From: Desulfatiglandales bacterium
GTDB taxonomy: Bacteria; Desulfobacterota; DSM-4660; Desulfatiglandales; Desulfatiglandaceae
Length of the DNA: 64,000 nt
Assembly (NCBI GenBank): GCA_963662465.1
Contig: OY759599.1
Location: 4,352,001 to 4,416,000, forward strand
Direction of reading: 5' to 3'
Below are positions 50,108-64,000 of the stretch, piece by piece. A model generated the notes under the pieces. The model did no database searches. It was not told the DNA's origin and saw only the letters and a program-made list of their open reading frames with translations. The translations under genes and the position numbers were made by a program. Numbering within the stretch: position 1 is the stretch's first letter; each line of letters opens with the position of its first letter.

Positions 50108-50335
50108 TTAAGCTTGGGCTTTATTTATGCGCTCTGCAATCCAGCTTTTGATTACGGATTGCGTCGCGATTCCAAGCCGCTTCGCTTCGCGATCGAGCAA
50201 TTCGATCATCCAGACCGGGAAGTCTACATTGATCCGCTTGTACTCGTGACCCGGACGGGTAGCCTTGGAGAAGTCGAGGTATTTGTCGACGTCTTCTCCA
50301 TCGTCAAACTTTTTGTCAAACTCCTTAGTCTTCAT
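50108..50335 (-). CDS. CopG/BrnA-type antitoxin
   Basis: EFDKKFDDGEDV, RINVDFPVWM, SVIKSWIAER. Confidence 0.8.
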   Translation of the reverse strand: MKTKEFDKKFDDGEDVDKYLDFSKATRPGHEYKRINVDFPVWMIELLDREAKRLGIATQSVIKSWIAERINKAQA

Positions 50336-51089
50336 ATCGTTCTATCTCCTTCGTACGTGAACGCCGGACGGAGATGATCCTTATTCTATCGCCGCGCGGT
50401 GTGAAAATCGCCGACCAATGCCTACTTCCGATTCGTCCGATCAACATGTAACGCGGTTCGCCTTGCGTGCGGGCAGGGACTTGCAGACGTTCTGGGTCCT
50501 CCCAGAGGGCTTGGGCCTCAACGAAGTTTATGTTCAAACCAGCACACTTTTCACGAAGTTCTTTCAGCGCCAGGTGTTGACTGTGACCCTCCCGAAATCC
50601 ATGGGAAACGTCATAAAACAAGGGCTCGTAAACCAGCCCCAGCAAAGCCGCCACCGCCTTCTGGACAATCTTGTCTTCCAGCGCCGGAATCCCTATCGGT
50701 CTCTTTTTACCGCCTTCCTTGTCCACCCATATGCGCTTGACCGGTGATGCAACGTACTGCCCTCTTCGCAGCCGTTCGTACAGTTTATAGAGGTTTTCAT
50801 TAAGATCGGCGGCATAGGTCTTCGCCGTTATCTTGTCAACTCCGGTCGACTCATTCTTACTCAAGCCCTTGAATGACTTTTTCAATAAATCAAAGTCTAT
50901 CCAATGCGCAAGTGATGTGAACACCGTTTGTGGATCGGCCATCCCCCGTATTGCTACCCGGGCAAGACTTGATTCACCGACCAGTACGGGGAGACCATGT
51001 GTACTCGGTTCTTCGGACTTCTGAGCAACCTGCTCCGCAATTTCCTGATTTTCCATTGATATGGGTTGTGACCTCTGAGTGTCTTCCAT
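50325..51089 (-). pseudogene. Chimeric ORF: N-terminal part of a group II intron RT fused in frame to the C-terminus of a BrnT toxin
   Basis: FTSLAHWID...GVD...RPIGIPALEDKIVQ...SHGFR...LNIN, then FVEAQALWEDP...RIRIISVRRSR; no YADD. Confidence 0.85.
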
Positions 51090-52137
51090 AGTTCCTATCA
51101 GAAAAACGTTATACCCTGCTTCACCTTCCCTACAGTGGGTCGCCTGGGCGTAACTTCCCCACCTTCCCGGCACCATCCTCGGCGCCATCGGTACTATGTT
51201 CCGCTAAGACTGCCAAAAGTCCCTCTCAAGCGCGTTCGCTTTTCGCTGTCCACACCTGATACCCTGTCTGCTTTCTTTCTTTGTGTTTCTTGCGACTCGT
51301 TTGCGGGTGAAAGCCTCCCGCTAACACCGGGGCTCTTGATCTCCCGGTACCCCTTGTCTTCCGGGTGTTTACACAAGGAGACTTTTGGCTCTCCCGAGTT
51401 CCCGAGCTATCCATTTGAATCCATGCCCTGGTCGTCGGGTAGAAATACGGCGCGCTCACCCTTAGGCAGAGAGTTTCCGTCTTGCACCCTTTCGGTTGTG
51501 CAGCGGGTTCCTAGTTCCGCCATAGCCAACGTTTCCGCAAGCCCCCCTCTCATCCCGGACGGTCGGATTTCCCGAGTCCGGTTGGCGGCCAGTGGTCTTC
51601 ATGTATTATCTCCGATACGCCTTCCCATATTACCGGAGGCTTAAGTACACGCCCACATACACCCCTCACTAATATGGTTTACTTATCGGATAGCCCGAGG
51701 CTCCGTTGACCAACTTTTACGGGCTCTGCGTCCCTTGTTTGGTGTCTTCCTTCCGGGCGACCACTGTACCGAGAGCCCCTTTGCCTTATCAGGGTATTAC
51801 CCCTCAAAGCGTCGCATTTACTGCGACATAGGCTGACATTACTCAACTCTCTTCGCTCATACGGGCTCATGCGCCGGACCAAACCCCTCTTGCTGCCTCG
51901 GCTTGTCACCTTGTGCAACACGTCTTCGCAGGTTGCTGCGTGCCCCTGCTGGGAGATGGCCCTTCCCGACGTTATCTCCTTAATCTTTATATGGGTGCCT
52001 GGACCCGTACCCCGCCGCGCTTCTCCGGTGCATTTGCTCGTTTCTTCCCGGAAAACATCGGCCTCACCTCAGTCTTAACAGGTTCGGCGCGCTGAAACCC
52101 CCACCGCATAGCAACTTCTACGATGGCCACCTTTTTC

Positions 52138-54143
52138 CGCATAAGTCTAAATGTTGTGGGGTTGTATAACCCATCAAAATTAAAAGGCGTTTTCGGTAAA
52201 CAAGAATGCATTATGAACATTCATAACTTGAATCCAAGGTAAGTCAAATGTTTGGCCGTTGGCTAATTCAAAGGGACTTTTATGAGCATTTTTTGCGCCA
52301 GGTAAAAATGGGACAAAATTCCTGATAGTCGCATGTGCTCGAAAGAAAAGACTTGCCCATTTCTTATCTCGAAAACTCTCAATTTGTTTTAGTTTACGTT
52401 TGATTCCTTTTAAATAATTGTCAACAATGGAGGTTGTTTGTTTTATCCCATTTCTATTTTTATGAGAGGTATAATGAGTGGCATTTTCTTTTAATTCTAC
52501 TACCCTCTTTTTTAGTAATGGATGAGAAAATGCATCGTCATCTAATGCCTTAATCTTTACTTCCAAGTTAACTTTAGATGTGGATGTTTTCAAAACTTTC
52601 TTAAATTTTTTATAAAGCTTGTCCACTTCTTGGTCGGTACATTTTGATTCTTTTTGATATTTTGATAGTGCATCGTAGAAGTTTTTCAAACAATGACGAT
52701 GGCAATATCCGACCCAAATGTTATGGAATACGGTCTTGATAGCATTGGTTGAGGCTTTCCACTTATCTTTTGTTACACCAAGGATTTTGAAGTCGATTTT
52801 TTGCAAAAAATCCTCAAATGAACCGCACAGGTTTTCTTCATCAACATGATCAACATAATCGGAGTGCCATACTAATAAATTTTCAGGATCGACCATAACT
52901 ACAGAATAAGTTCTTAAATTTGGTTCTTTTTCAAAGCCCTCATCTTCCTGTAGATATCCTGAGCCTTTCACTCCTGCTCTTGTTAGTATTGTTGCAGGAT
53001 GAAGTGTTCCTGCCCATCGATTCCAGTTCAAGATGGTCTGTTTGCTTTTGACACTTTTTTTGCCAATAATTTTAAGGCTTTCGATGGCTCCTTGAATGCT
53101 CGCATTAAAACGGTACATATTCCGAAATACGTGCCCAATAATCTCTATACCAAAATTCTTTTCCCTTGGGAGAAAGCTGGGAACAAGAGAGAACTTTTGT
53201 TTGCACTTCCGGCATTGTATCATGCGGATTGGGAATGTCTGTTGTTCTCCTCCATTCATTATTGTTTTTCGAGGATTCCCGCGGAAACCAGATAAAATAT
53301 ATTCTTTAGGTCCAGAACATGTTGAATTATGGCCTGTGTGGTGATCATATTTATCGAGTTTATCTAATACTTCAATGCGAAACTTCTTACTATCTTTTAC
53401 GAGAGCATGATAGCTTTCGGTGTTATTATAAGGAAAGATATATGTTTGATTTCCTCGTTTAGAAACAAGGTCTTCCATTTTCTTTTTTACATTTTCGATT
53501 ATGGATTTATCAAAAGATTTTAACATCCCTATCTCAAATGCAATACTGATTGTACTATCACGACTTTTTACATTATTCAATTTTTTAGTAATATTACTTA
53601 TCATTGAACGAATTGAATAAAAGATTCTAATTTTCTGTCGATCCCGTTGTGTTTTTGGAATGCTTTTTTTCCCTTTTATTGGCTTACAAATATCCCATAA
53701 TTGACTTATTAACCTACCAAGTTCATCAATAAGAGCAGACAATGTTACATAAAAATATTGCAATGATTGAAACATCTCCCTTTCATTGATCCATGATCTG
53801 ATGGCATTAATGCATTTCTCAATTTCAAAGAAAATCTCAGGATACTGTTTTGGATCGTAATAACATTGTCTTGCAAGTCTGTTTTGAGCTTTGTCCAACA
53901 TTGTCAAAGCTCTCTTAATATTATTAATCATGTGCAACCTCTCTAATTTAACATAGACTGTTGCACTATGATTATGCACACTTATCAAAAAAAGTCCCTA
54001 ACTTTTTTCCGCTAAGGCGAATTCAGGAAAAAATGTTTGGCCTCACGAAATGCGCTTTGATTAGGATATTGATTCTGAACCGTTTAACAGATGAAATAAT
54101 TTCAATATGTTAGAGTAAACCCCACAACATTTAGACTTATGCG
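52138..54143 (-). mobile_element. 2006-bp IS, copy with TSD
   Basis: Same 26-bp IRs; 8-bp TSD CCTTTTTC at 52130-52137 and 54144-54151. Confidence 0.93.
52180..53988 (-). CDS. Putative Mutator-like transposase
   Basis: Same protein as 38003-39811. Confidence 0.7.
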   Translation of the reverse strand: MISVHNHSATVYVKLERLHMINNIKRALTMLDKAQNRLARQCYYDPKQYPEIFFEIEKCINAIRSWINEREMFQSLQYFYVTLSALIDELGRLISQLWDICKPIKGKKSIPKTQRDRQKIRIFYSIRSMISNITKKLNNVKSRDSTISIAFEIGMLKSFDKSIIENVKKKMEDLVSKRGNQTYIFPYNNTESYHALVKDSKKFRIEVLDKLDKYDHHTGHNSTCSGPKEYILSGFRGNPRKTIMNGGEQQTFPIRMIQCRKCKQKFSLVPSFLPREKNFGIEIIGHVFRNMYRFNASIQGAIESLKIIGKKSVKSKQTILNWNRWAGTLHPATILTRAGVKGSGYLQEDEGFEKEPNLRTYSVVMVDPENLLVWHSDYVDHVDEENLCGSFEDFLQKIDFKILGVTKDKWKASTNAIKTVFHNIWVGYCHRHCLKNFYDALSKYQKESKCTDQEVDKLYKKFKKVLKTSTSKVNLEVKIKALDDDAFSHPLLKKRVVELKENATHYTSHKNRNGIKQTTSIVDNYLKGIKRKLKQIESFRDKKWASLFFRAHATIRNFVPFLPGAKNAHKSPFELANGQTFDLPWIQVMNVHNAFLFTENAF

Positions 54144-54706
54144 CCTTTTTCGAGGCTGCAGTCATTCCTTTATGTTCAAGCTCCCATACTTGCTAGGCCC
54201 CCAGGTTGCACCCACCGCTGGAGATCAACTTCTCCAGGGCGGCCGGGCCGTTTACACCACGCAATGGACATGAGGTTACCCTTCATGAACTGTGGTATCG
54301 CTACACACTCGAATCGAGCAATTAGTATGACGGAACTTTCACCCGCTAGATTAAGGCCTTGTCGGCCGCTACCTAAGACCCCGGTGGCAACCTCAACACT
54401 CGCCATGGCGCATCAAGGTTTGCTGCCTTCCGCTTGCTCCAAAGCGTCGGCTTTCTCCCACATTTGTAGGATTATCCAATGACCACAACTATACATTTTT
54501 CGGGGCTCAATACACGTCCTGGATTCTCGTTCCGTCCAGCTCCATACGCCGGTTACCCGGTTTGCACGTGGACTTCACTACCGAACTGGTGGCTAACCTT
54601 TGCTCGGGTGGGACTTTCGCTTTCCGCGATCACCCACTGGATAACAATAACCAATTTCATCCCGATTTACGCGGGTTCCCAAGGTTTCGGGCTTACCTCG
54701 GCGCGA

Positions 54707-54723
54707 GCAGCGTTTGCTTCGCC
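54707..54723 (-). other. Half attC, 5' exon of the class E-like intron
   Basis: + strand GCAGCGTTTGCTTCGCC versus intact attC arm GCAGCGTTTGGTTCGCA at 58145-58161. Confidence 0.65.
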
Positions 54724-55089
54724 ACTGTGGACGATCCTAAGTATACGGAATTTCGGCGAAAACAACTGCACCTTTCCAGATTGATAATGCCTTATTTTCT
54801 TTGGGAACTCGGTTTGATTTTCGTGTTTCCACGAAATGCCTTAGGATCATATCAATTTCGAATTCCCACCATTAAATGAAAAAAACTTCCTTTTTGATTC
54901 TCCCCCGCACTTCAGGTTGCTTTTATGTTTTTGTCATTCCTTTCTTAGATGCTGGGTACATTCTTACCTACTGGGGACATCCTTTTCTTTGTAAATGGGT
55001 TAGATTATGTCCTAAATTTTGACCGTCCTTATAAGGCAATCGACTGAAATTTCAGTGAAAGATGTCGTCGCAAAAGAGTTGCGCCCATT

Positions 55090-55464
55090 TCAAATAACAG
55101 CTTTAAACTCTATTTTTTCATCTCCAAATGTCGATTCAACCACTTTATGCATCCCATGTCCGGGATTTCGCTCTTTGAAGGTTTTAATCAACTGGTATTT
55201 AGACAATAATTTCAAATCATTATTGAGACTTACAGGTGTACGCTGCATTACCGACATAAGTTCAGAGAATATGACTTTTTTCTTTTTCCTCAAATATTGG
55301 ATCAGCTTGGTTCTCTCTGGTTTTAGTATGGCCATTAAGTCTGAAGGAGCAACCCATATTATATTTTTTGGAGTTAATTTACGGCCCTCATCAATTTCTT
55401 TTGCTGTTTCTTTTGCTGAAACAAAAAAATCAGAAAGATCCCCTGTCTTTATCTCGAGCGTCAT
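55090..55464 (-). CDS. HTH antitoxin-like protein (HVO_A0114-like)
   Basis: DLMAILKPERTKLI...SEL...R...SLNNDLKLL, NPGHG; coupled to the upstream gene. Confidence 0.65.
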   Translation of the reverse strand: MTLEIKTGDLSDFFVSAKETAKEIDEGRKLTPKNIIWVAPSDLMAILKPERTKLIQYLRKKKKVIFSELMSVMQRTPVSLNNDLKLLSKYQLIKTFKERNPGHGMHKVVESTFGDEKIEFKAVI

Positions 55465-55778
55465 TTTATGAACTCCCTTACTTCTTTTTCAAATCTTTCT
55501 ACAAGTTCCCGATAACTTATAAATTTTTCAACCTCAGATATTTCTCCAAAGTAGTGCTTATGGTGGAAATTATGAGTATTGTCATAGCCTAAAACCCTGC
55601 CATTATCTCCAGAGAAAATAAGATGATTGATATAGGCCATGCTGTATTTTACTATTTCGCCCTGTTCATTCTCCCATGCATCAATTTTGACAAGTCCTCC
55701 CCCTCTTTTGGGATTTATGGAGAATTGTTCAGATACAACTTTTTTGAACTTGGTTTTGCCCGTTCGTTTGGATTTCAT
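55461..55778 (-). CDS. DUF6516/TumE-like putative toxin
   Basis: KYSMAY, RVLGYDNTH..HHKH. Confidence 0.65.
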   Translation of the reverse strand: MKSKRTGKTKFKKVVSEQFSINPKRGGGLVKIDAWENEQGEIVKYSMAYINHLIFSGDNGRVLGYDNTHNFHHKHYFGEISEVEKFISYRELVERFEKEVREFIK

Positions 55779-55849
55779 TTAATCATACTATCAGACATCA
55801 AAGTAGTTGTAAATCTGCACTTACGACTATTCTTGAGGTATTCATTGGG

Positions 55850-58075
55850 GTCGAGTAGCCAGGGGATGTTGCCATCCCCCAGCCCTCTAAGAACCGTGCG
55901 TGCGCCGTTAAACGCACACGGCTCAAGCATTCCAAAGGCAAGCCCTTTCGGGGCTACCCGGTTGTGACGTTTTATGCTCTTTACGCCTGTCTGCCTTCTG
56001 CTGACTGCGTTGGGCATATCGTTTCCTGAAATAGTGTTCATATTTCGGATCGAAGGGGTTCGCATCCCCTCGAATTTTGACATGGCGTTTTATCTTGACG
56101 TCGTAAGCTTTCTCAAGTTCAATTCTAGCGGATTTCGCATAGCCGTCCTTGATCACCGCTGAAAAGGACCACGGACGAGATCCTTTTGACCAGTATTTAT
56201 CCACCAGCCAACTCTTACTCTTGCCCGAATGTTTCCTCCTCATCCATTGCCAAATATAGCTGTAGATACGGTGATCTACAAGCCCGAAAGTTCTACCGGA
56301 AACCACATGCCTGTGGTAATTGGCCCATCCCCTGATTTTGGGATTGAGCACTTTAATCAGGGTGTCGGCTCTTGATGCCGCATGCTTTCGGATCGTTTGC
56401 CGGATATTGCCTAAGAAGGCTTTCACGTTTTTACGAGAGGGCTTTATCAAGAGCTTCCCCTGGTATTTGCGTGGATTCTGTCCGAGAAAATCAAATCCTT
56501 CTTCTATCCTTGTGATCAACGTCTTTTCCGCTGAAAGCGAAAGTCCTCTTCGCTCCATAAATGCTTCAATTTCCAGCTTGATCTCATTTAGCATCTCTCT
56601 GGAATTCCCGGTGATGATGAAATCATCAGCGTAACGGATTACGTTTATCTTGGACCGTATATTGCCCTGGATTCTTATCGGGGCGGTACTTTTGGCTGCC
56701 GCTTCCAGACCATCCAGGACCATATTAGCCAATGTTGGAGAGATAATCCCGCCTTGCGGGGTTCCTCTGTAAGTCGGATAGAGCTTGCCTCCTTCCACAT
56801 AACCGGATTTCAGCCATTTCTGAAGCGTCCGTTTATCCATGGGGATATTTTCGAGCATCCATTGATGGCTGATTTCGTCAAAACAGGCCTTTATGTCTCC
56901 CTCCAAAATCCATGCGGGTGAGTAGCTCTTGGCCAGAGAAATAAAACAATGACCGATGGCATCCGCACATCCTCGATAGGCTCTGAACCCATAAGAGTTC
57001 GGATCGGCGGTGGTTTCCGCCACCGGATCAAGGGCCAGTTTGTGCAACGCCTGCATGGCTCTGTCTTTCATGGTGGGAATGCCCAATGGGCGTTTCTTGC
57101 CGTTTTTCTTGGGTATGTAAATTCGGCGCAGCGGTTTGGGTCGGTAAGTTCTTCGGTGCAGGTCTTTTGCCGCCTGCATTTTGTCAATGTGGGTGGACCA
57201 TATAACTTTATCCACTCCCGGCGTGCGTTTACCTCGGTTGGAAGTAACGCGCTTGATGGCCAACAACTTGGCATAAAACGAATGGGTCAAAAGCCATTGT
57301 ATTGCCTTAACCTTTCCCCATCGCTTTTCCTTCACAGCCTTTGCGATACGCACCTGCAGTCTTCTAACGTGCTCGCCGGCGGTTCTCCAGTTTATGGATT
57401 TCCACCAGTTTGTTCCGTCCAAAGGTGCACCAGTCGCCAAAATGGCCACCGTCATTTGCTTTCCCCTGTTTGAAGATTCTACAAATTATCTCGCAATGGA
57501 ACACCGGTCAGAAGTCTGCTCTCTTTCGAGCCGGATCATGTAGGTGATTACACCGTCAATCCGTATCCCCATCATTACAACGGGGCATTTGCTTTTTTCT
57601 GACATCCTTTACCCGCAACCCCATGGGCTCACCTTGCGGTTCGCTTTCCCCGTGGGGAGGATTACGGGCTTACCATGTTCCGCGTAAGTACCCGAGCAGG
57701 TTAGGTTCCGCCCGTACGCCGGTGGCACGACATCCGCGATGGAGGAGTTCGCAGCCCCCATACCTGGCCACATACCGTTTGGTCCAAGCCTTTCAGCATC
57801 TTAGGCTTGTTCTCGTGACGACGCTGCAGCGATTCACATGTGTTAACCATACTGCTCAATTCTAGCTCCCTTACCGCATGATGCTTGCAGAGTTGAGGTC
57901 TCCTCACGGTTCCCTCTCCCGGAAGATTCCGCGGGCTTCATTGTCCCGAGAGCTTCACACCCCCGGATTACTCCGGACGCATGTCCCGGTAGAATACCTG
58001 TTGCAGAAAACAGGGTTTTGTTATATGGTTTATATCAATATACAAAACAGCTACTTACGCGACATCACGTCGCAC
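55850..58075 (-). mobile_element. Complete group II intron (CL-like), 2226 nt
   Basis: 5' GTGCGACG; DV GAGCCGTGTGCGTTTAACGGCGCACGCACGGTTC; DVI ending CTACTCGAC. Confidence 0.92.
55923..57455 (-). CDS. ltrA: Group II intron reverse transcriptase/maturase, no HNH domain evident
   Basis: WKSINW N-terminal domain, RPLGIPT, GDIKACFD, GTPQGG, RYADD, GFDFLG, IRGWANY. Confidence 0.93.
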   Translation of the reverse strand: MTVAILATGAPLDGTNWWKSINWRTAGEHVRRLQVRIAKAVKEKRWGKVKAIQWLLTHSFYAKLLAIKRVTSNRGKRTPGVDKVIWSTHIDKMQAAKDLHRRTYRPKPLRRIYIPKKNGKKRPLGIPTMKDRAMQALHKLALDPVAETTADPNSYGFRAYRGCADAIGHCFISLAKSYSPAWILEGDIKACFDEISHQWMLENIPMDKRTLQKWLKSGYVEGGKLYPTYRGTPQGGIISPTLANMVLDGLEAAAKSTAPIRIQGNIRSKINVIRYADDFIITGNSREMLNEIKLEIEAFMERRGLSLSAEKTLITRIEEGFDFLGQNPRKYQGKLLIKPSRKNVKAFLGNIRQTIRKHAASRADTLIKVLNPKIRGWANYHRHVVSGRTFGLVDHRIYSYIWQWMRRKHSGKSKSWLVDKYWSKGSRPWSFSAVIKDGYAKSARIELEKAYDVKIKRHVKIRGDANPFDPKYEHYFRKRYAQRSQQKADRRKEHKTSQPGSPERACLWNA

Positions 58076-58161
58076 GCGAACGACAAGCTCACCAGCGCCT
58101 CCTCCGGGCCCCCGCCGGAACCGCCCAAGTATCAGGCGTCTGGTGCAGCGTTTGGTTCGCA
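58076..58161 (-). other. attC site; R' box split by the intron
   Basis: + strand GCGAAC-gaca-AGCTCACCAG-CGCC ... GGCG-t-CTGGTG(C)AGCG-tttg-GTTCGCA. Confidence 0.8.
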
Positions 58162-58582: not shown

Positions 58583-59992
58583 TTATCGGGGAACCACAGT
58601 TACACTCGGCTGTAATTTTATGGACCCACCACCTGTGGATACAGGACTGTAAATCTGGCTCGTTCCGTTGTGATCTGCGAAAGAATTTTTCCATCCGCCG
58701 CTGATGGTAACCATTCCAGCCTTTTTCCAATCAGGAGCTTCTGAATAAGTACCATCTGCGACCTTGATAAGTGAACCATCTTCAGCCGCTTCTAGAGCAA
58801 GATTAATCGTTTGATAGCAAGGTTCTTGACCACATTGTCCATGGTTATCGACATACAATAATGTTCCGGATTGTTTAGTACGAACTGGCCACACGTAGTA
58901 GTCATCGGACTTATCGTGGTCGTTCACGATGCCGTAGTCCATGATCACGACCCACGCGGCGTCGGTATGGTGCGCATTGGTAGTGGACGACCAGTAGTCT
59001 CCAGACTGAACATTTGCAAAGGGATGGCCCGCCGGTAGCGCAAGGGAATATTGAGAGAAATCCGTCAGGCTGAGAAGCTCCTTCCGGTTTGGCAATCGCC
59101 AGTCCGTGTAGCCGGCCGCATAGTCCCCGCATGTATAGCTCCCCGGATTGACGTTCAAGTCTGCCACCTTGGCCAAGGCGGTCTGCCAGGACATAGACCC
59201 AAAACAGTTGGCATCCTTGAGCCACATCAGTCCCGTCAGGTTGTCCGTCACCGTACCGTCCCCATTGTCGGCAAGCCGGGGGTCGGGCCAGCCCACGCCT
59301 CTTTGCAAAGCGCCGTCATCTCCGACTCCATAGCTCTGGGTCTGCCCGGTTTTCCACACGGCTGCCAGCGGGATTTTTGCGGCGCGAACCGCCCATACAT
59401 AGCTGCTGATGGACTTATTGTAGCCCTCCATGAACCCGTTGGCCATGTATATGCCCCACGCGTACCCGGTATCGTTTGCGTAGGTAGTTGATGACCAGTA
59501 ACTGAAAGACTGAACGTCCGAAAAACCGCTCAAATTCAACCAACTTCCCGAATCGTCAACTGCCGCGTTGTATAGGCTTTGCAATTCATTGACATTGGGA
59601 AGTGCCCAGTCTGAATAAGTCCCTGTGTAGCCGCCGCATGTATAACTCCCCGGATTGGCGTTCAAGTCTGTCACTTTGTCCAGGGCGGCCTGCCAGGTCA
59701 GAGACCCAAGACAATCGGCGTCTTTGAGCCACATCAATCCACTCAAATTATCGGTAATCGTCCCATCGCCATTGTCCGTGAAGCGAGGATTGGGCCAGGC
59801 CGCACCTGCTTGAATATCTCCATCTTGGCCGGTTCCGGCGCAAGGAATTACGTTGCCCCCCTCATCGTAGCATGTGATTTGGCCTGTTTTCGGAAGATCT
59901 ACCGTGCCTGCAAATAAAGTGTTCGCAGTCAGAAACAATGAACCCATGGCTAACATCACCAACACAAAAAACCTTAACTCTTTTCTCATCAC
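58583..59992 (-). CDS. Secreted protein with tandem DUF1566 (Lcl-type C-lectin fold) domains
   Basis: GGAGG RBS, signal peptide, two copies of KTGQ...DNGDGTxTDNLxGLMW...W.LPN..EL...YWSSTT...VW.VR. Confidence 0.88.
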   Translation of the reverse strand: MMRKELRFFVLVMLAMGSLFLTANTLFAGTVDLPKTGQITCYDEGGNVIPCAGTGQDGDIQAGAAWPNPRFTDNGDGTITDNLSGLMWLKDADCLGSLTWQAALDKVTDLNANPGSYTCGGYTGTYSDWALPNVNELQSLYNAAVDDSGSWLNLSGFSDVQSFSYWSSTTYANDTGYAWGIYMANGFMEGYNKSISSYVWAVRAAKIPLAAVWKTGQTQSYGVGDDGALQRGVGWPDPRLADNGDGTVTDNLTGLMWLKDANCFGSMSWQTALAKVADLNVNPGSYTCGDYAAGYTDWRLPNRKELLSLTDFSQYSLALPAGHPFANVQSGDYWSSTTNAHHTDAAWVVIMDYGIVNDHDKSDDYYVWPVRTKQSGTLLYVDNHGQCGQEPCYQTINLALEAAEDGSLIKVADGTYSEAPDWKKAGMVTISGGWKNSFADHNGTSQIYSPVSTGGGSIKLQPSVTVVPR

Positions 59993-60350: not shown

Positions 60351-60481
60351 CGCGAACGTTTAGTTAACTGGAAAACGGGTTCAAAAAAATATATTATCAT
60401 TCCAGCTGGTGACTTCGTAGGAACCAACGCATTTCGGTTTATCTCCCAATACCAGTTTTCCAGTTCAACGGGGTGTTGGAC
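60351..60481 (-). other. attC site of IS91-like cassette copy 1
   Basis: Minus strand GTCCAAC ... GTT(G)AACTGGAAAAC ... GTTTTCCAGTTAAC ... GTTCGCG. Confidence 0.8.
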
Positions 60482-60722
60482 AGAGCCGCGGGTCATCAGC
60501 ACATACTTTGCCGGAAGCAGGAGATCGGCTATGGAGATTAAGGGAGCTTCTCAGCTGTCGCGTGACCTCTTTTTAACCCGTCATGGCCGGTTAAGGATGA
60601 TAAAATTCCTGCTTTCAATTGCATGATCCGTCAAAAACCCTGAAATATCGCGTTATTTATCCCTTTACCAAACGCCTCGCCATTCAAGTGCCTTTTTGAA
60701 TATGCTCATGTTTATTATCGTT

Positions 60723-61922
60723 TTACGCTGCCTGTGCATATACCGTATCCGGGTCCTTATTGAACCTCGGAAGACTTTTTGACTTTCTTACCGGTGCAAC
60801 TATTTTCAACGTAATAAGACGTTTCCCGCAAACTGGGCAACAATCCGGTTGCTCGTCGCTTCGCTGCTGCCACAGACTCTGCCAGTCCAGAAATTCCGTA
60901 TCTTCAAGTGCCGGTTGTCCCAGTATTTCCCGGCAGCGTGCCAGTTCTTTTTTTGCGTTGTGATGGTAAAGGCCGTATGAACGCACCATCATGGAATTCG
61001 CCAGGGGAACGTGTTGCAGGTAGCGGCCGATAAAGGTTTGAATCGGCAAGGTAATGAGTCTTACCCGCTCACGACCGTAATTGAAGGTGACGTTTCCGTT
61101 TTCAATGCGGAAGATGCGTTTATTTGAGATCGGTCCGCCTCTCAGATACCGGGCCAGGTAAATTAAGACCCCTTCTCCGTATGAATAGGTCTCCTTGAGT
61201 TTAACGTTCCACTTCTTACGGCGCCCCAACTTATTAAACAGGTTTCGCGCCTGCTGCGGTCCCATGCCTTCGGGCAGAATCAGTTCTTCACGGGCAAGGG
61301 CTTTTCTCAAATAGTGGAGATATTTTCCTCGAAAAACCGCCCGGACAATGCCAAACGGCAGAAGAAACGTTTTTGATGAAGCAATCCACTCGCCGGCGGA
61401 CAGACCACCGGCCGTCACCAAACAATGCAAATGGGGATGAAAATCCAATTTTCGGCTCCAGGTATGCAACGAGGCAATGATGCCGACTTTGGCCCCCAAA
61501 TGCTTCGGGTCTCCAAGGAGTTCGGAAAGGGTCTCGGTCGCGCTTTTGAACAGCAGATTAGCCATGACTTTACGGTTCAGCCGCCATAAGTCATGCAATT
61601 CATCGGAGATGGTGAAAATAACGTGGAAATGCTCGGCACTCAGGAGTCGGGCCTTTTGTTTCGCCAGCCACCGCTCAACCTGGGTGAAGGCGCAGAGTGG
61701 GCACATACGGTGTTTACACGAGTTATACCAGACCCTCTGGAAGTGACCATCCGGACATGCCTGGACGTGCCCCCCCAGAATGGACGTGCGGCAGGACATC
61801 AGACGATGAGCCGCCTCACGAATATGTTCCGGAAGACAATGCGTCTGATTATAGAGGGCATAGCCAAGAAGAAAGATGCCCTGAATCGTCGTTTCCACTG
61901 CGATTTCACCTATTTCTACCAA
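60723..61922 (-). CDS. IS91-family (Y2 HUH) transposase with N-terminal Zn-binding domain
   Basis: CRT..LGG, YNSCKHRMCPLC, HVIFT, LHTW...FHPHLHCLVTAGG, YLARYLRGGPIS. Confidence 0.9.
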   Translation of the reverse strand: MVEIGEIAVETTIQGIFLLGYALYNQTHCLPEHIREAAHRLMSCRTSILGGHVQACPDGHFQRVWYNSCKHRMCPLCAFTQVERWLAKQKARLLSAEHFHVIFTISDELHDLWRLNRKVMANLLFKSATETLSELLGDPKHLGAKVGIIASLHTWSRKLDFHPHLHCLVTAGGLSAGEWIASSKTFLLPFGIVRAVFRGKYLHYLRKALAREELILPEGMGPQQARNLFNKLGRRKKWNVKLKETYSYGEGVLIYLARYLRGGPISNKRIFRIENGNVTFNYGRERVRLITLPIQTFIGRYLQHVPLANSMMVRSYGLYHHNAKKELARCREILGQPALEDTEFLDWQSLWQQRSDEQPDCCPVCGKRLITLKIVAPVRKSKSLPRFNKDPDTVYAQAA

Positions 61923-61959
61923 TTTTCGACGTTAAGTTCCCCCGCTGTCCAGCGGGTCT

Positions 61960-62090
61960 GTCCAACGTTTAGTTAACTGGAAAACGGGTTCAAAAAAATA
62001 TATTATCATTCCAGCTGGTGACTTCGTAGGAACCAACGCATTTCGGTTTATCTCCCAATACCAGTTTTCCAGTTCAACGGGGTGTTGGAC
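61960..62090 (-). other. attC site of IS91-like cassette copy 2
   Basis: Perfect GTCCAAC (RYYYAAC) / GTTGGAC (GTTRRRY) pair. Confidence 0.85.
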
Positions 62091-62331
62091 AGAGCCGCGG
62101 GTCATCAGCACATACTTTGCCGGAAGCAGGAGATCGGCTATGGAGATTAAGGGAGCTTCTCAGCTGTCGCGTGACCTCTTTTTAACCCGTCATGGCCGGT
62201 TAAGGATGATAAAATTCCTGCTTTCAATTGCATGATCCGTCAAAAACCCTGAAATATCGCGTTATTTATCCCTTTACCAAACGCCTCGCCATTCAAGTGC
62301 CTTTTTGAATATGCTCATGTTTATTATCGTT

Positions 62332-63531
62332 TTACGCTGCCTGTGCATATACCGTATCCGGGTCCTTATTGAACCTCGGAAGACTTTTTGACTTTCTTAC
62401 CGGTGCAACTATTTTCAACGTAATAAGACGTTTCCCGCAAACTGGGCAACAATCCGGTTGCTCGTCGCTTCGCTGCTGCCACAGACTCTGCCAGTCCAGA
62501 AATTCCGTATCTTCAAGTGCCGGTTGTCCCAGTATTTCCCGGCAGCGTGCCAGTTCTTTTTTTGCGTTGTGATGGTAAAGGCCGTATGAACGCACCATCA
62601 TGGAATTCGCCAGGGGAACGTGTTGCAGGTAGCGGCCGATAAAGGTTTGAATCGGCAAGGTAATGAGTCTTACCCGCTCACGACCGTAATTGAAGGTGAC
62701 GTTTCCGTTTTCAATGCGGAAGATGCGTTTATTTGAGATCGGTCCGCCTCTCAGATACCGGGCCAGGTAAATTAAGACCCCTTCTCCGTATGAATAGGTC
62801 TCCTTGAGTTTAACGTTCCACTTCTTACGGCGCCCCAACTTATTAAACAGGTTTCGCGCCTGCTGCGGTCCCATGCCTTCGGGCAGAATCAGTTCTTCAC
62901 GGGCAAGGGCTTTTCTCAAATAGTGGAGATATTTTCCTCGAAAAACCGCCCGGACAATGCCAAACGGCAGAAGAAACGTTTTTGATGAAGCAATCCACTC
63001 GCCGGCGGACAGACCACCGGCCGTCACCAAACAATGCAAATGGGGATGAAAATCCAATTTTCGGCTCCAGGTATGCAACGAGGCAATGATGCCGACTTTG
63101 GCCCCCAAATGCTTCGGGTCTCCAAGGAGTTCGGAAAGGGTCTCGGTCGCGCTTTTGAACAGCAGATTAGCCATGACTTTACGGTTCAGCCGCCATAAGT
63201 CATGCAATTCATCGGAGATGGTGAAAATAACGTGGAAATGCTCGGCACTCAGGAGTCGGGCCTTTTGTTTCGCCAGCCACCGCTCAACCTGGGTGAAGGC
63301 GCAGAGTGGGCACATACGGTGTTTACACGAGTTATACCAGACCCTCTGGAAGTGACCATCCGGACATGCCTGGACGTGCCCCCCCAGAATGGACGTGCGG
63401 CAGGACATCAGACGATGAGCCGCCTCACGAATATGTTCCGGAAGACAATGCGTCTGATTATAGAGGGCATAGCCAAGAAGAAAGATGCCCTGAATCGTCG
63501 TTTCCACTGCGATTTCACCTATTTCTACCAA
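62332..63531 (-). CDS. IS91-family transposase, copy 2
   Basis: Identical to 60723-61922. Confidence 0.9.
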   Translation of the reverse strand: MVEIGEIAVETTIQGIFLLGYALYNQTHCLPEHIREAAHRLMSCRTSILGGHVQACPDGHFQRVWYNSCKHRMCPLCAFTQVERWLAKQKARLLSAEHFHVIFTISDELHDLWRLNRKVMANLLFKSATETLSELLGDPKHLGAKVGIIASLHTWSRKLDFHPHLHCLVTAGGLSAGEWIASSKTFLLPFGIVRAVFRGKYLHYLRKALAREELILPEGMGPQQARNLFNKLGRRKKWNVKLKETYSYGEGVLIYLARYLRGGPISNKRIFRIENGNVTFNYGRERVRLITLPIQTFIGRYLQHVPLANSMMVRSYGLYHHNAKKELARCREILGQPALEDTEFLDWQSLWQQRSDEQPDCCPVCGKRLITLKIVAPVRKSKSLPRFNKDPDTVYAQAA

Positions 63532-63568
63532 TTTTCGACGTTAAGTTCCCCCGCTGTCCAGCGGGTCT

Positions 63569-63699
63569 GTCCAACGTTTAGTTAACTGGAAAACGGGTTC
63601 AAAAAAATATATTATCATTCCAGCTGGTGACTTCGTAGGAACCAACGCATTTCGGTTTATCTCCCAATACCAGTTTTCCAGTTCAACGGGGTGTTGGAC
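63569..63699 (-). other. attC site of IS91-like cassette copy 3
   Basis: Same sequence as 61960-62090; the gene's 3' end begins at 63941. Confidence 0.85.
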
Positions 63700-64000
63700 A
63701 GAGCCGCGGGTCATCAGCACATACTTTGCCGGAAGCAGGAGATCGGCTATGGAGATTAAGGGAGCTTCTCAGCTGTCGCGTGACCTCTTTTTAACCCGTC
63801 ATGGCCGGTTAAGGATGATAAAATTCCTGCTTTCAATTGCATGATCCGTCAAAAACCCTGAAATATCGCGTTATTTATCCCTTTACCAAACGCCTCGCCA
63901 TTCAAGTGCCTTTTTGAATATGCTCATGTTTATTATCGTTTTACGCTGCCTGTGCATATACCGTATCCGGGTCCTTATTGAACCTCGGAAGACTTTTTGA

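Follow-up and report, generated by a model that had tools for sequence, protein, structure and literature searches.

The window analyzed here, a 64,000-nt stretch of the genome of a Desulfatiglandales bacterium (GCA_963662465.1, contig OY759599.1, positions 4,352,001-4,416,000 of the forward strand; genome G000), carries on its minus strand a complete group II intron of 2226 nt (55850..58075), recognized by matches to Rfam D1-D4-7 (57866-58015, 122 bits) and D5/D6 (55850-55926). Its limits are set by the ends GTGCGA (5', at 58075) and CTCGAC (3', at 55850), which are common to copies with different flanks and bear out the preliminary description, where an intron had been placed in the top strand at the junction GCTTGT-C-GTTCGC/C. 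The intron encodes a protein of 510 aa (55923..57455, minus strand) with an RVT_N domain, a reverse transcriptase (RT) domain with the YADD motif and a GIIM maturase domain; a domain search recovered no endonuclease domain in it. Domain V (55891..55924, minus strand; Rfam D5/D6 match and fold) is 34 nt long with an AGC triad, and domain VI (55850..55885, minus strand) folds with a bulged A seven bases from the 3' end, the fold of the two domains together having a z score of -6.5.

Together with the GUGYG 5' end and the AXXXRAY 3' end, these are features of IIB/CL1 introns, as are 6-bp EBS1-IBS1 and EBS2-IBS2 pairings, represented here by 6/6 pairs for EBS1 and by four pairs plus one G-U for the EBS2 revised below. 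Among solved structures, the best relative of the protein is the 6ME0 maturase (568 bits, E 1.7e-169), which we take to come from a CL1/IIB intron; the others follow at E 5e-41 to 3e-25, with bit scores of 92-144 for LtrA and the class C enzymes. The hallmarks of class C are lacking, the triad being AGC rather than CGC and the class C structures scoring 92-114 bits versus 568. Judged by its domain content (RVT_N, RVT_1, GIIM) and best structure match, with 6ME0 ahead by more than 400 bits, the intron is a member of CL1/IIB. No alignment column stood out as the partner of IBS3 among 14 full-length rows (9 with C), and a scan for promoters and terminators gave matches at chance level. A second group II intron in the window (50325-54781, minus strand; Rfam D1-D4-6 match at 54369-54617) is not at an attC and is broken: a 602-aa ORF splits it, and the reading frame of its RT N terminus continues into a BrnT toxin gene, behind which comes a gene for a CopG-type antitoxin.

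Target site and integron setting

The intron directly follows an attC site (58076..58161; the top strand is the minus strand of the window), in which R'' (58155-58161), L'' (58142-58149), L' (58087-58093) and R' (58076-58081) fit the R''-L''-L'-R' arrangement with 5-nt spacers, one extra base in L'' and 7/7 L-box pairs. This and all other attC calls come from our own rule-based caller (AAC, 5-nt spacer, L boxes, GTT and folding energy), with no curated attC model behind them. The 86-nt site folds with a z score of -2.4 in the top strand and -3.7 in the bottom strand. The junction reads GCTTGT-C-GTTCGC, intron, C, so that the insertion lies after the sixth base of R', in the top strand and in cassette orientation. 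IBS1 (GTTCGC, 58076..58081, minus strand) consists of the first six bases of R', IBS2 (GCTTGT, 58083..58088, minus strand) of the end of L' and the L'-R' spacer, and the first 3' exon base (C, 55849..55849, minus strand), the expected IBS3, is the seventh base of R'. The earlier idea that EBS1 and EBS2 both read the R' box thus applies to EBS1 but not to EBS2. The IntI crossover, G/TT, falls within IBS1; with the intron inserted 5 nt downstream of it, the attC arms and GTT are left whole and the intron forms part of the next cassette's head.

An intI gene (G000 4425408-4426355, plus strand; 444 bits against an NCBIfam cut-off of 265) is located ~15 kb from the intron and divergent from the array, with eight further attC sites in between. 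The same attC family is found again in arrays beside intI genes of this genome, which holds five intI matches scoring above the cut-off, along with several others that are broken. Downstream of the intron, a TumE-type toxin-antitoxin toxin gene (55461-55778, minus strand) is paired with an HVO_A0114-like gene that scores below the cut-off (55090-55464, minus strand), the pair spanning 55090..55778; our caller found no attC behind this pair, and the genome contains no intron-free allele of the 3' exon. The upstream cassette extends from R' at 60352-60357 to the invaded attC and carries a gene with an Lcl_C domain (58583..59992, minus strand). Between attI and the Lcl_C cassette lie eight tandem 1609-bp cassettes (window 60352-64000 and G000:C1:4412351-4425230), each comprising a gene for an IS91-like (Y2) transposase and an attC of its own; two full ORFs fall within the window (60723-61922 and 62332-63531), and the array may be either a genuine amplification or an assembly artefact.

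Assignment of EBS1 and EBS2

CL1 5' ends were gathered by motif from 401 genomes of the phylum and at least 121 metagenome loci, yielding 138 distinct matches of at least 300 nt, of which 67 have a full domain I and many others are chance matches or truncated. Covariation with the exon was assessed on 27 CL1 rows away from attC, including five kin of one family and two of another, with one duplicate and three stacked rows omitted. GCGAAC (57747..57752, minus strand) stands in the loop of a hairpin (57739-57761) and, as previously noticed, complements IBS1 GTTCGC. In the 27 rows, the bases of this column pair with the six exon bases in front of the respective intron at a mean of 4.74/6 versus 2.19 after shuffling, which confirms GCGAAC as EBS1.

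The assignment of EBS2 had to be changed. ACAAGC (57805-57810), the original candidate, does complement GCTTGT, but it is held in the 5' strand of a domain I stem-loop (57785..57809, minus strand) with compensatory pairs in 46 rows: between 57803-57809 and 57785-57791, the five central pairs are kept in 43-46 of the 46 rows, with changes on both sides and several pair types, the first pair being present in 38 and the last in 19. This stem forms in both whole-domain folds and is absent from the short-fragment fold; whole-domain folding shows GCGAAC in a loop and leaves ACAAGC paired. The ACAAGC position showed no covariation with the exon in the 27 rows (z -0.3), and in sister introns with an identical ACAAGC it matches the site at 1.5-3 of 6 positions, while their linker matches at 3.5-5. 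Covariation points instead to a window 7-8 bases upstream (z about 11), four bases after a conserved CGT and eight ahead of the stem. We therefore reject ACAAGC as EBS2 and assign this role to ACGAGA (57811..57816, minus strand), six bases upstream of it and the positional homologue of this window in the linker before the stem, which forms four Watson-Crick pairs and one G-U with GCTTGT. In this one family, ACAAGC may still provide an alternative pairing with IBS2.

Copies and other introns at integron sites of the genome

BLAST searches recovered 12 copies of the family in the genome, 85-100% identical over domain I and all at integron sites: 10 at attC R'+6, one at an attI-like core beside intI and one directly behind a sister copy, following the last base of that sister, which is itself sited at an attC. 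Nine different non-intron 3' exons are represented, and IBS1 contains a mismatch in 5 of the 10 copies at attC. Three copies at different sites are identical, which suggests recent movement. In one copy, the 5' exon ends with GTTGGC, while the 13 intron-free occurrences of its cassette follow GTTGGA, a switch suggestive of recombination between copies. A supposed further intron behind the copy at G000:6782939 proved to be the start of an Lcl_C cassette. A motif search for all CL1 5' ends of the genome returned 27 (one additional match was dropped as apparent chance), 18 of them at called attC sites and 2 at attC sites recognized by eye, 4 at attI-like cores, where EBS2 pairs poorly, and 3 stacked.

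Several other introns share this habitat. Two further CL1 families occupy R' or attI cores (G000:C1 289760, 450963, 622945, 2371487, 3314683, 3322313, 3333982, 3353258, 5886487, 6379417, 6734663, 6752326; 440621, 3306435, 4983327), most starting with TTGCG and many being ~0.8 kb long without an ORF; the one full protein (450963) is 54% identical. A family with Rfam D1-D4-6 domains (G000:C1 3214560, 6745351, 6787916, 6375430 (L243)) is found at R'+6 of the top strand in three copies and behind another intron in one, and its protein resembles, by eye, the class E proteins presented in the accessible text of PMC7923331. Rfam D1-D4-3 introns (G000:C1 294985, 445380, 644318, 3342346, 3352351, 6766181 (L245, L246)) follow TGTT or GGTT of R'' in the bottom strand, several being ~0.83 kb long without an ORF, and some attC sites are occupied by introns at either end. 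A small element of 310 bp, bounded by terminal inverted repeats, interrupts the codons of the conserved GTPQGG motif in the RT genes of six copies of the family, as well as in two introns from other families (G000:C1 3338480-3338789; similar at 292493, 2365498, 3346644, 3350328, 6842540, 3215920 and 4989425) and seems to target intron RT genes.

Relatives in other genomes

Loci of relatives were added through protein, DNA and pattern searches, with most genome-derived flanks coming from one phylum; 120 protein relatives among the matches listed (58-94% identity), which come without DNA context, were left out. Outside the genome, an attC was called at 26 of the 34 junctions in the R'-side domain I groups, and GTT occurs within the final 8 nt at 32 of the 34; in the 55 other rows, this caller returned no attC. 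Among the eight uncalled junctions, one is cut short, several are attC-like by eye and two (L228 and L170) have no attC; in L228, EBS1 CATTAC stands opposite GTAATG. Since most sampled CL1 introns lie away from attC, the attC habit is confined to a subclade. In the RT phylogeny, which had been called for at the outset, the 12 rows inserted at R'+5 to +8 form one clade (97/94), in which the family of the window intron is sister to a family at ~70% identity. The tree comprises 36 rows (9 of 45 were omitted as short or near-duplicate), broken genes were read through, and the rows had been labelled by eye before the first tree was built. In domain I trees, the R'-side clade falls into two parts with weak deep nodes, and the window family is not joined to the second family. 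The full-length clade proteins of other genomes (five and one duplicate) extend 227-228 aa beyond YADD, whereas seven non-attC rows have 278-289 aa there; CL1/IIB homing introns sampled outside the attC clade thus retain a longer, endonuclease-like C terminus.

In other genomes, relatives whose proteins are 52-80% identical occupy unrelated attC families in the same register and with re-matched EBS. EBS1 has the form nnnAAC where the insertion is at R'+6 and nnAACG where it is at R'+5. EBS2 varies with the spacer of the local attC family, and the EBS2/site combinations include ACGAGA/GCTTGT here, GGGAGA/GCTCCC in the sister family, ACAAGC/GCTTGT in the second family of the genome and also TAGAAT/GTTCTG, with several relatives' EBS2 pairing poorly (2-3 of 6). 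In two other samples, contigs with a near-identical intron reach past its 5' end and match the exon for another 17 and 21 bases; three sequencing runs contained GCTAAC as a variant of EBS1, and no contig showed spliced exons joined together. No relatives were found in viral contigs, and plasmids gave only domain I matches of 60-80% identity. Collectively, these sequence comparisons support a separate non-IIC lineage specialized on the attC top strand.

Other CL1 introns are associated with attC-like sequences in different registers. Divergent ones (L003-L006, L187-L192) have a matching EBS1 and, as far as the 5' halves of the sites tell, follow an L''-like box in the top strand at a distance of about two bases (AAC, 5 nt, 8 nt, 2 nt), and others (L039, L052, L057, L059 of G261, L003:6012) lie at R'+2 of attC with EBS1 GCGTTT or GCGCTT and a long open frame, 592 aa in G261. 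In L186, L024, L040 and L155, the 5' exon resembles the domain VI end of another group II intron. A single clade of all attC-associated CL1 rows was rejected (p-AU 2e-5, with the L''-side sites judged from their 5' half only), and adding only the R'+2 row to the R'-side clade was not (p 0.24).

Specificity and proposed mechanism

We propose, with a probability of about 0.78, that the intron belongs to an endonuclease-less CL1/IIB lineage specialized on the integron core. From the observed position, orientation, class, complementarity, covariation and clade, we infer that the intron RNA, together with its reverse transcriptase, would reverse-splice into the attC top strand behind the sixth base of R', with EBS1 pairing with the GTTnnn core and EBS2 with the L' end and spacer during homing. 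In known IIB introns, reverse splicing is guided by EBS1, EBS2 and EBS3 and by upstream protein contacts, according to the accessible text of PMC3898094.

Pairing is not the whole account. In the genome, 447 sites equal or exceed typical occupied ones in pairing; 13 are attC and 434 are not, none of the latter kind is occupied, and four well-matching attC sites are still empty. As the 434 equally pairing non-attC sites are empty, the protein or the hairpin must add to specificity. Thus, from the initial suggestion of a separate lineage homing to attC by base pairing, the lineage is retained (RT clade 97/94, 12/12 copies, EBS shifts), while pairing turns out to be insufficient by itself (434/447). 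Requiring A at -14 leaves 147 decoys, GA leaves 46 and TGA (-16 to -14, in L') leaves 17, with all 13 attC sites kept throughout; a few protein contacts in L' would therefore be nearly sufficient. In all likelihood, the protein recognizes a few additional conserved bases of L', or the hairpin.

The unused sites are also what would be expected if structure came first, as in IIC-attC introns, with the ribonucleoprotein recognizing the folded attC top strand and EBS1 only setting the register at the invariant GTT. Mismatches at IBS1 positions 4-6 and in EBS2 are indeed tolerated, the top strand does fold (z -2.4), and a role for the hairpin has been speculated upon in the accessible part of PMC7923331. 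However, EBS1 and EBS2 co-vary with the local site across families, which would be needless under a structure-only rule, folding of the top strand pairs IBS1 with R'' and would hide it, and three L' bases already clear most decoys, so that we consider such targeting unlikely. More improbable still is the absence of any real specialization, with one insertion in a repeated attC family multiplied by cassette duplication or recombination and insertions elsewhere purged: the attC family is homogeneous in this genome, the GTTGGC copy set against 13 GTTGGA occurrences points to recombination and three copies are identical, but the nine non-intron 3' exons, the re-matched EBS of 52-80% identical relatives in unrelated attC families at the same register and the disuse of intergenic decoys that are equally neutral all speak against it.

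For the proposed EBS-guided homing to the attC top strand, the lack of an endonuclease means that the primer must come from replication, and cDNA priming would take place at the replication fork. From RmInt1, a lagging-strand template is expected. Judged by GC skew, the top strand is the leading-strand template in 11 of the 12 copies, which mirrors the arrays: the bottom strand is on the lagging-strand template at 56 of the 77 candidate attC sites of the genome. The notion that the top strand is chosen as the lagging-strand template is therefore rejected, both counts being opposite to it. An IntI nick as cDNA primer was likewise rejected on geometry, since, as we understand the chemistry, the crossover lies on the 5'-exon side. 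Most sedentary integrons have the arrangement opposite to that of the 56/77 sites, as stated in the accessible text of PMC5371416.

A co-oriented intron could be transcribed with the array and splice out. Carriage with the next cassette would account for copies at attI-like cores and in a foreign attC family, where EBS2 pairs at 1.5-2.5 of 6 positions, without direct homing. These elements can be joined into a tentative scenario that, taken as a whole, has somewhat poorer than even odds: a two-step life cycle would couple two mobile systems, in which EBS-guided homing to the cassette head leaves attC functional, and IntI then carries the intron with its cassette to attI near the array promoter, leading to transcription, splicing and renewed homing. 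In the same scenario, EBS2 would track the host's own attC family, the many intron copies would allow IntI-independent reshuffling of cassettes, and the attC target would have been adopted repeatedly among CL1 introns, on the R' side and on the L'' side, and also in a lineage resembling class E.

Relation to known introns and implications

Targeting of attC has been treated as a trait of class IIC introns that depends on the DNA hairpin (PMC4424553 and PMC3001079, in their accessible parts), and attC goes unmentioned in the accessible text of PMC8919778. The corresponding statement of the preliminary description, that the attC introns usually described are class IIC and recognize the bottom-strand hairpin, is incomplete, as one CL1 intron inserted in the top strand after an attC has already been published. 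Like the window intron, the group IIC-attC introns (for example, S.ma.I2) are endonuclease-less and specialized on the attC sites of cassette arrays; they belong, however, to class C, insert into the bottom strand at TTGT/T in R'' against the cassette orientation, have no EBS2 and impede transcription from Pc (accessible parts of PMC3001079 and PMC4424553), whereas the window intron belongs to CL1, lies in the top strand at R'+6, is co-oriented with the cassettes and has an EBS2. With T.el4h (6ME0), TeI3c/4c and EcI5, it shares the protein class and the read-out of the 5' exon by EBS1, EBS2 and protein (accessible text of PMC3898094); unlike it, these introns home to gene or intron sequences.

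The closest published case is UHB.I2 (Sonbol and Siam 2021, PMC7923331, accessible text), known from one metagenome copy and reported along with two class E fragments. It is a IIB1 intron with a CL1 protein without endonuclease, is positioned right behind an attC in cassette orientation and has toxin-antitoxin genes nearby; in its printed sequence, we read by eye AGAACG at the EBS1 position, the shape seen in R'+5 introns. It differs in being a single copy, and in the part of that paper accessible to us EBS1 is not tied to R' and no lineage is described; the same text cites one class C intron in the top strand and reports no exon conservation. CL1 and class E introns have also been noted in two Shewanella integrons, as has one class C-attC intron in cassette orientation (PMC9229058), with target site, register and mechanism absent from the accessible account. 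In the literature covered, non-IIC introns at integrons are thus isolated cases (PMC7923331, PMC9229058) with no link between EBS and R'; most subscription papers lay outside this coverage, and an earlier description may exist.

A IIB lineage that reaches attC by EBS pairing, from the other strand and leaving the site unbroken, would represent a second solution to the same niche. Its relatives offer a natural series of EBS/IBS swaps, and the starts of cassettes in environmental integrons can hold introns of 0.8-2.5 kb. With a programmable class of introns at hand, the way in which retroelements shape cassette arrays would become testable.
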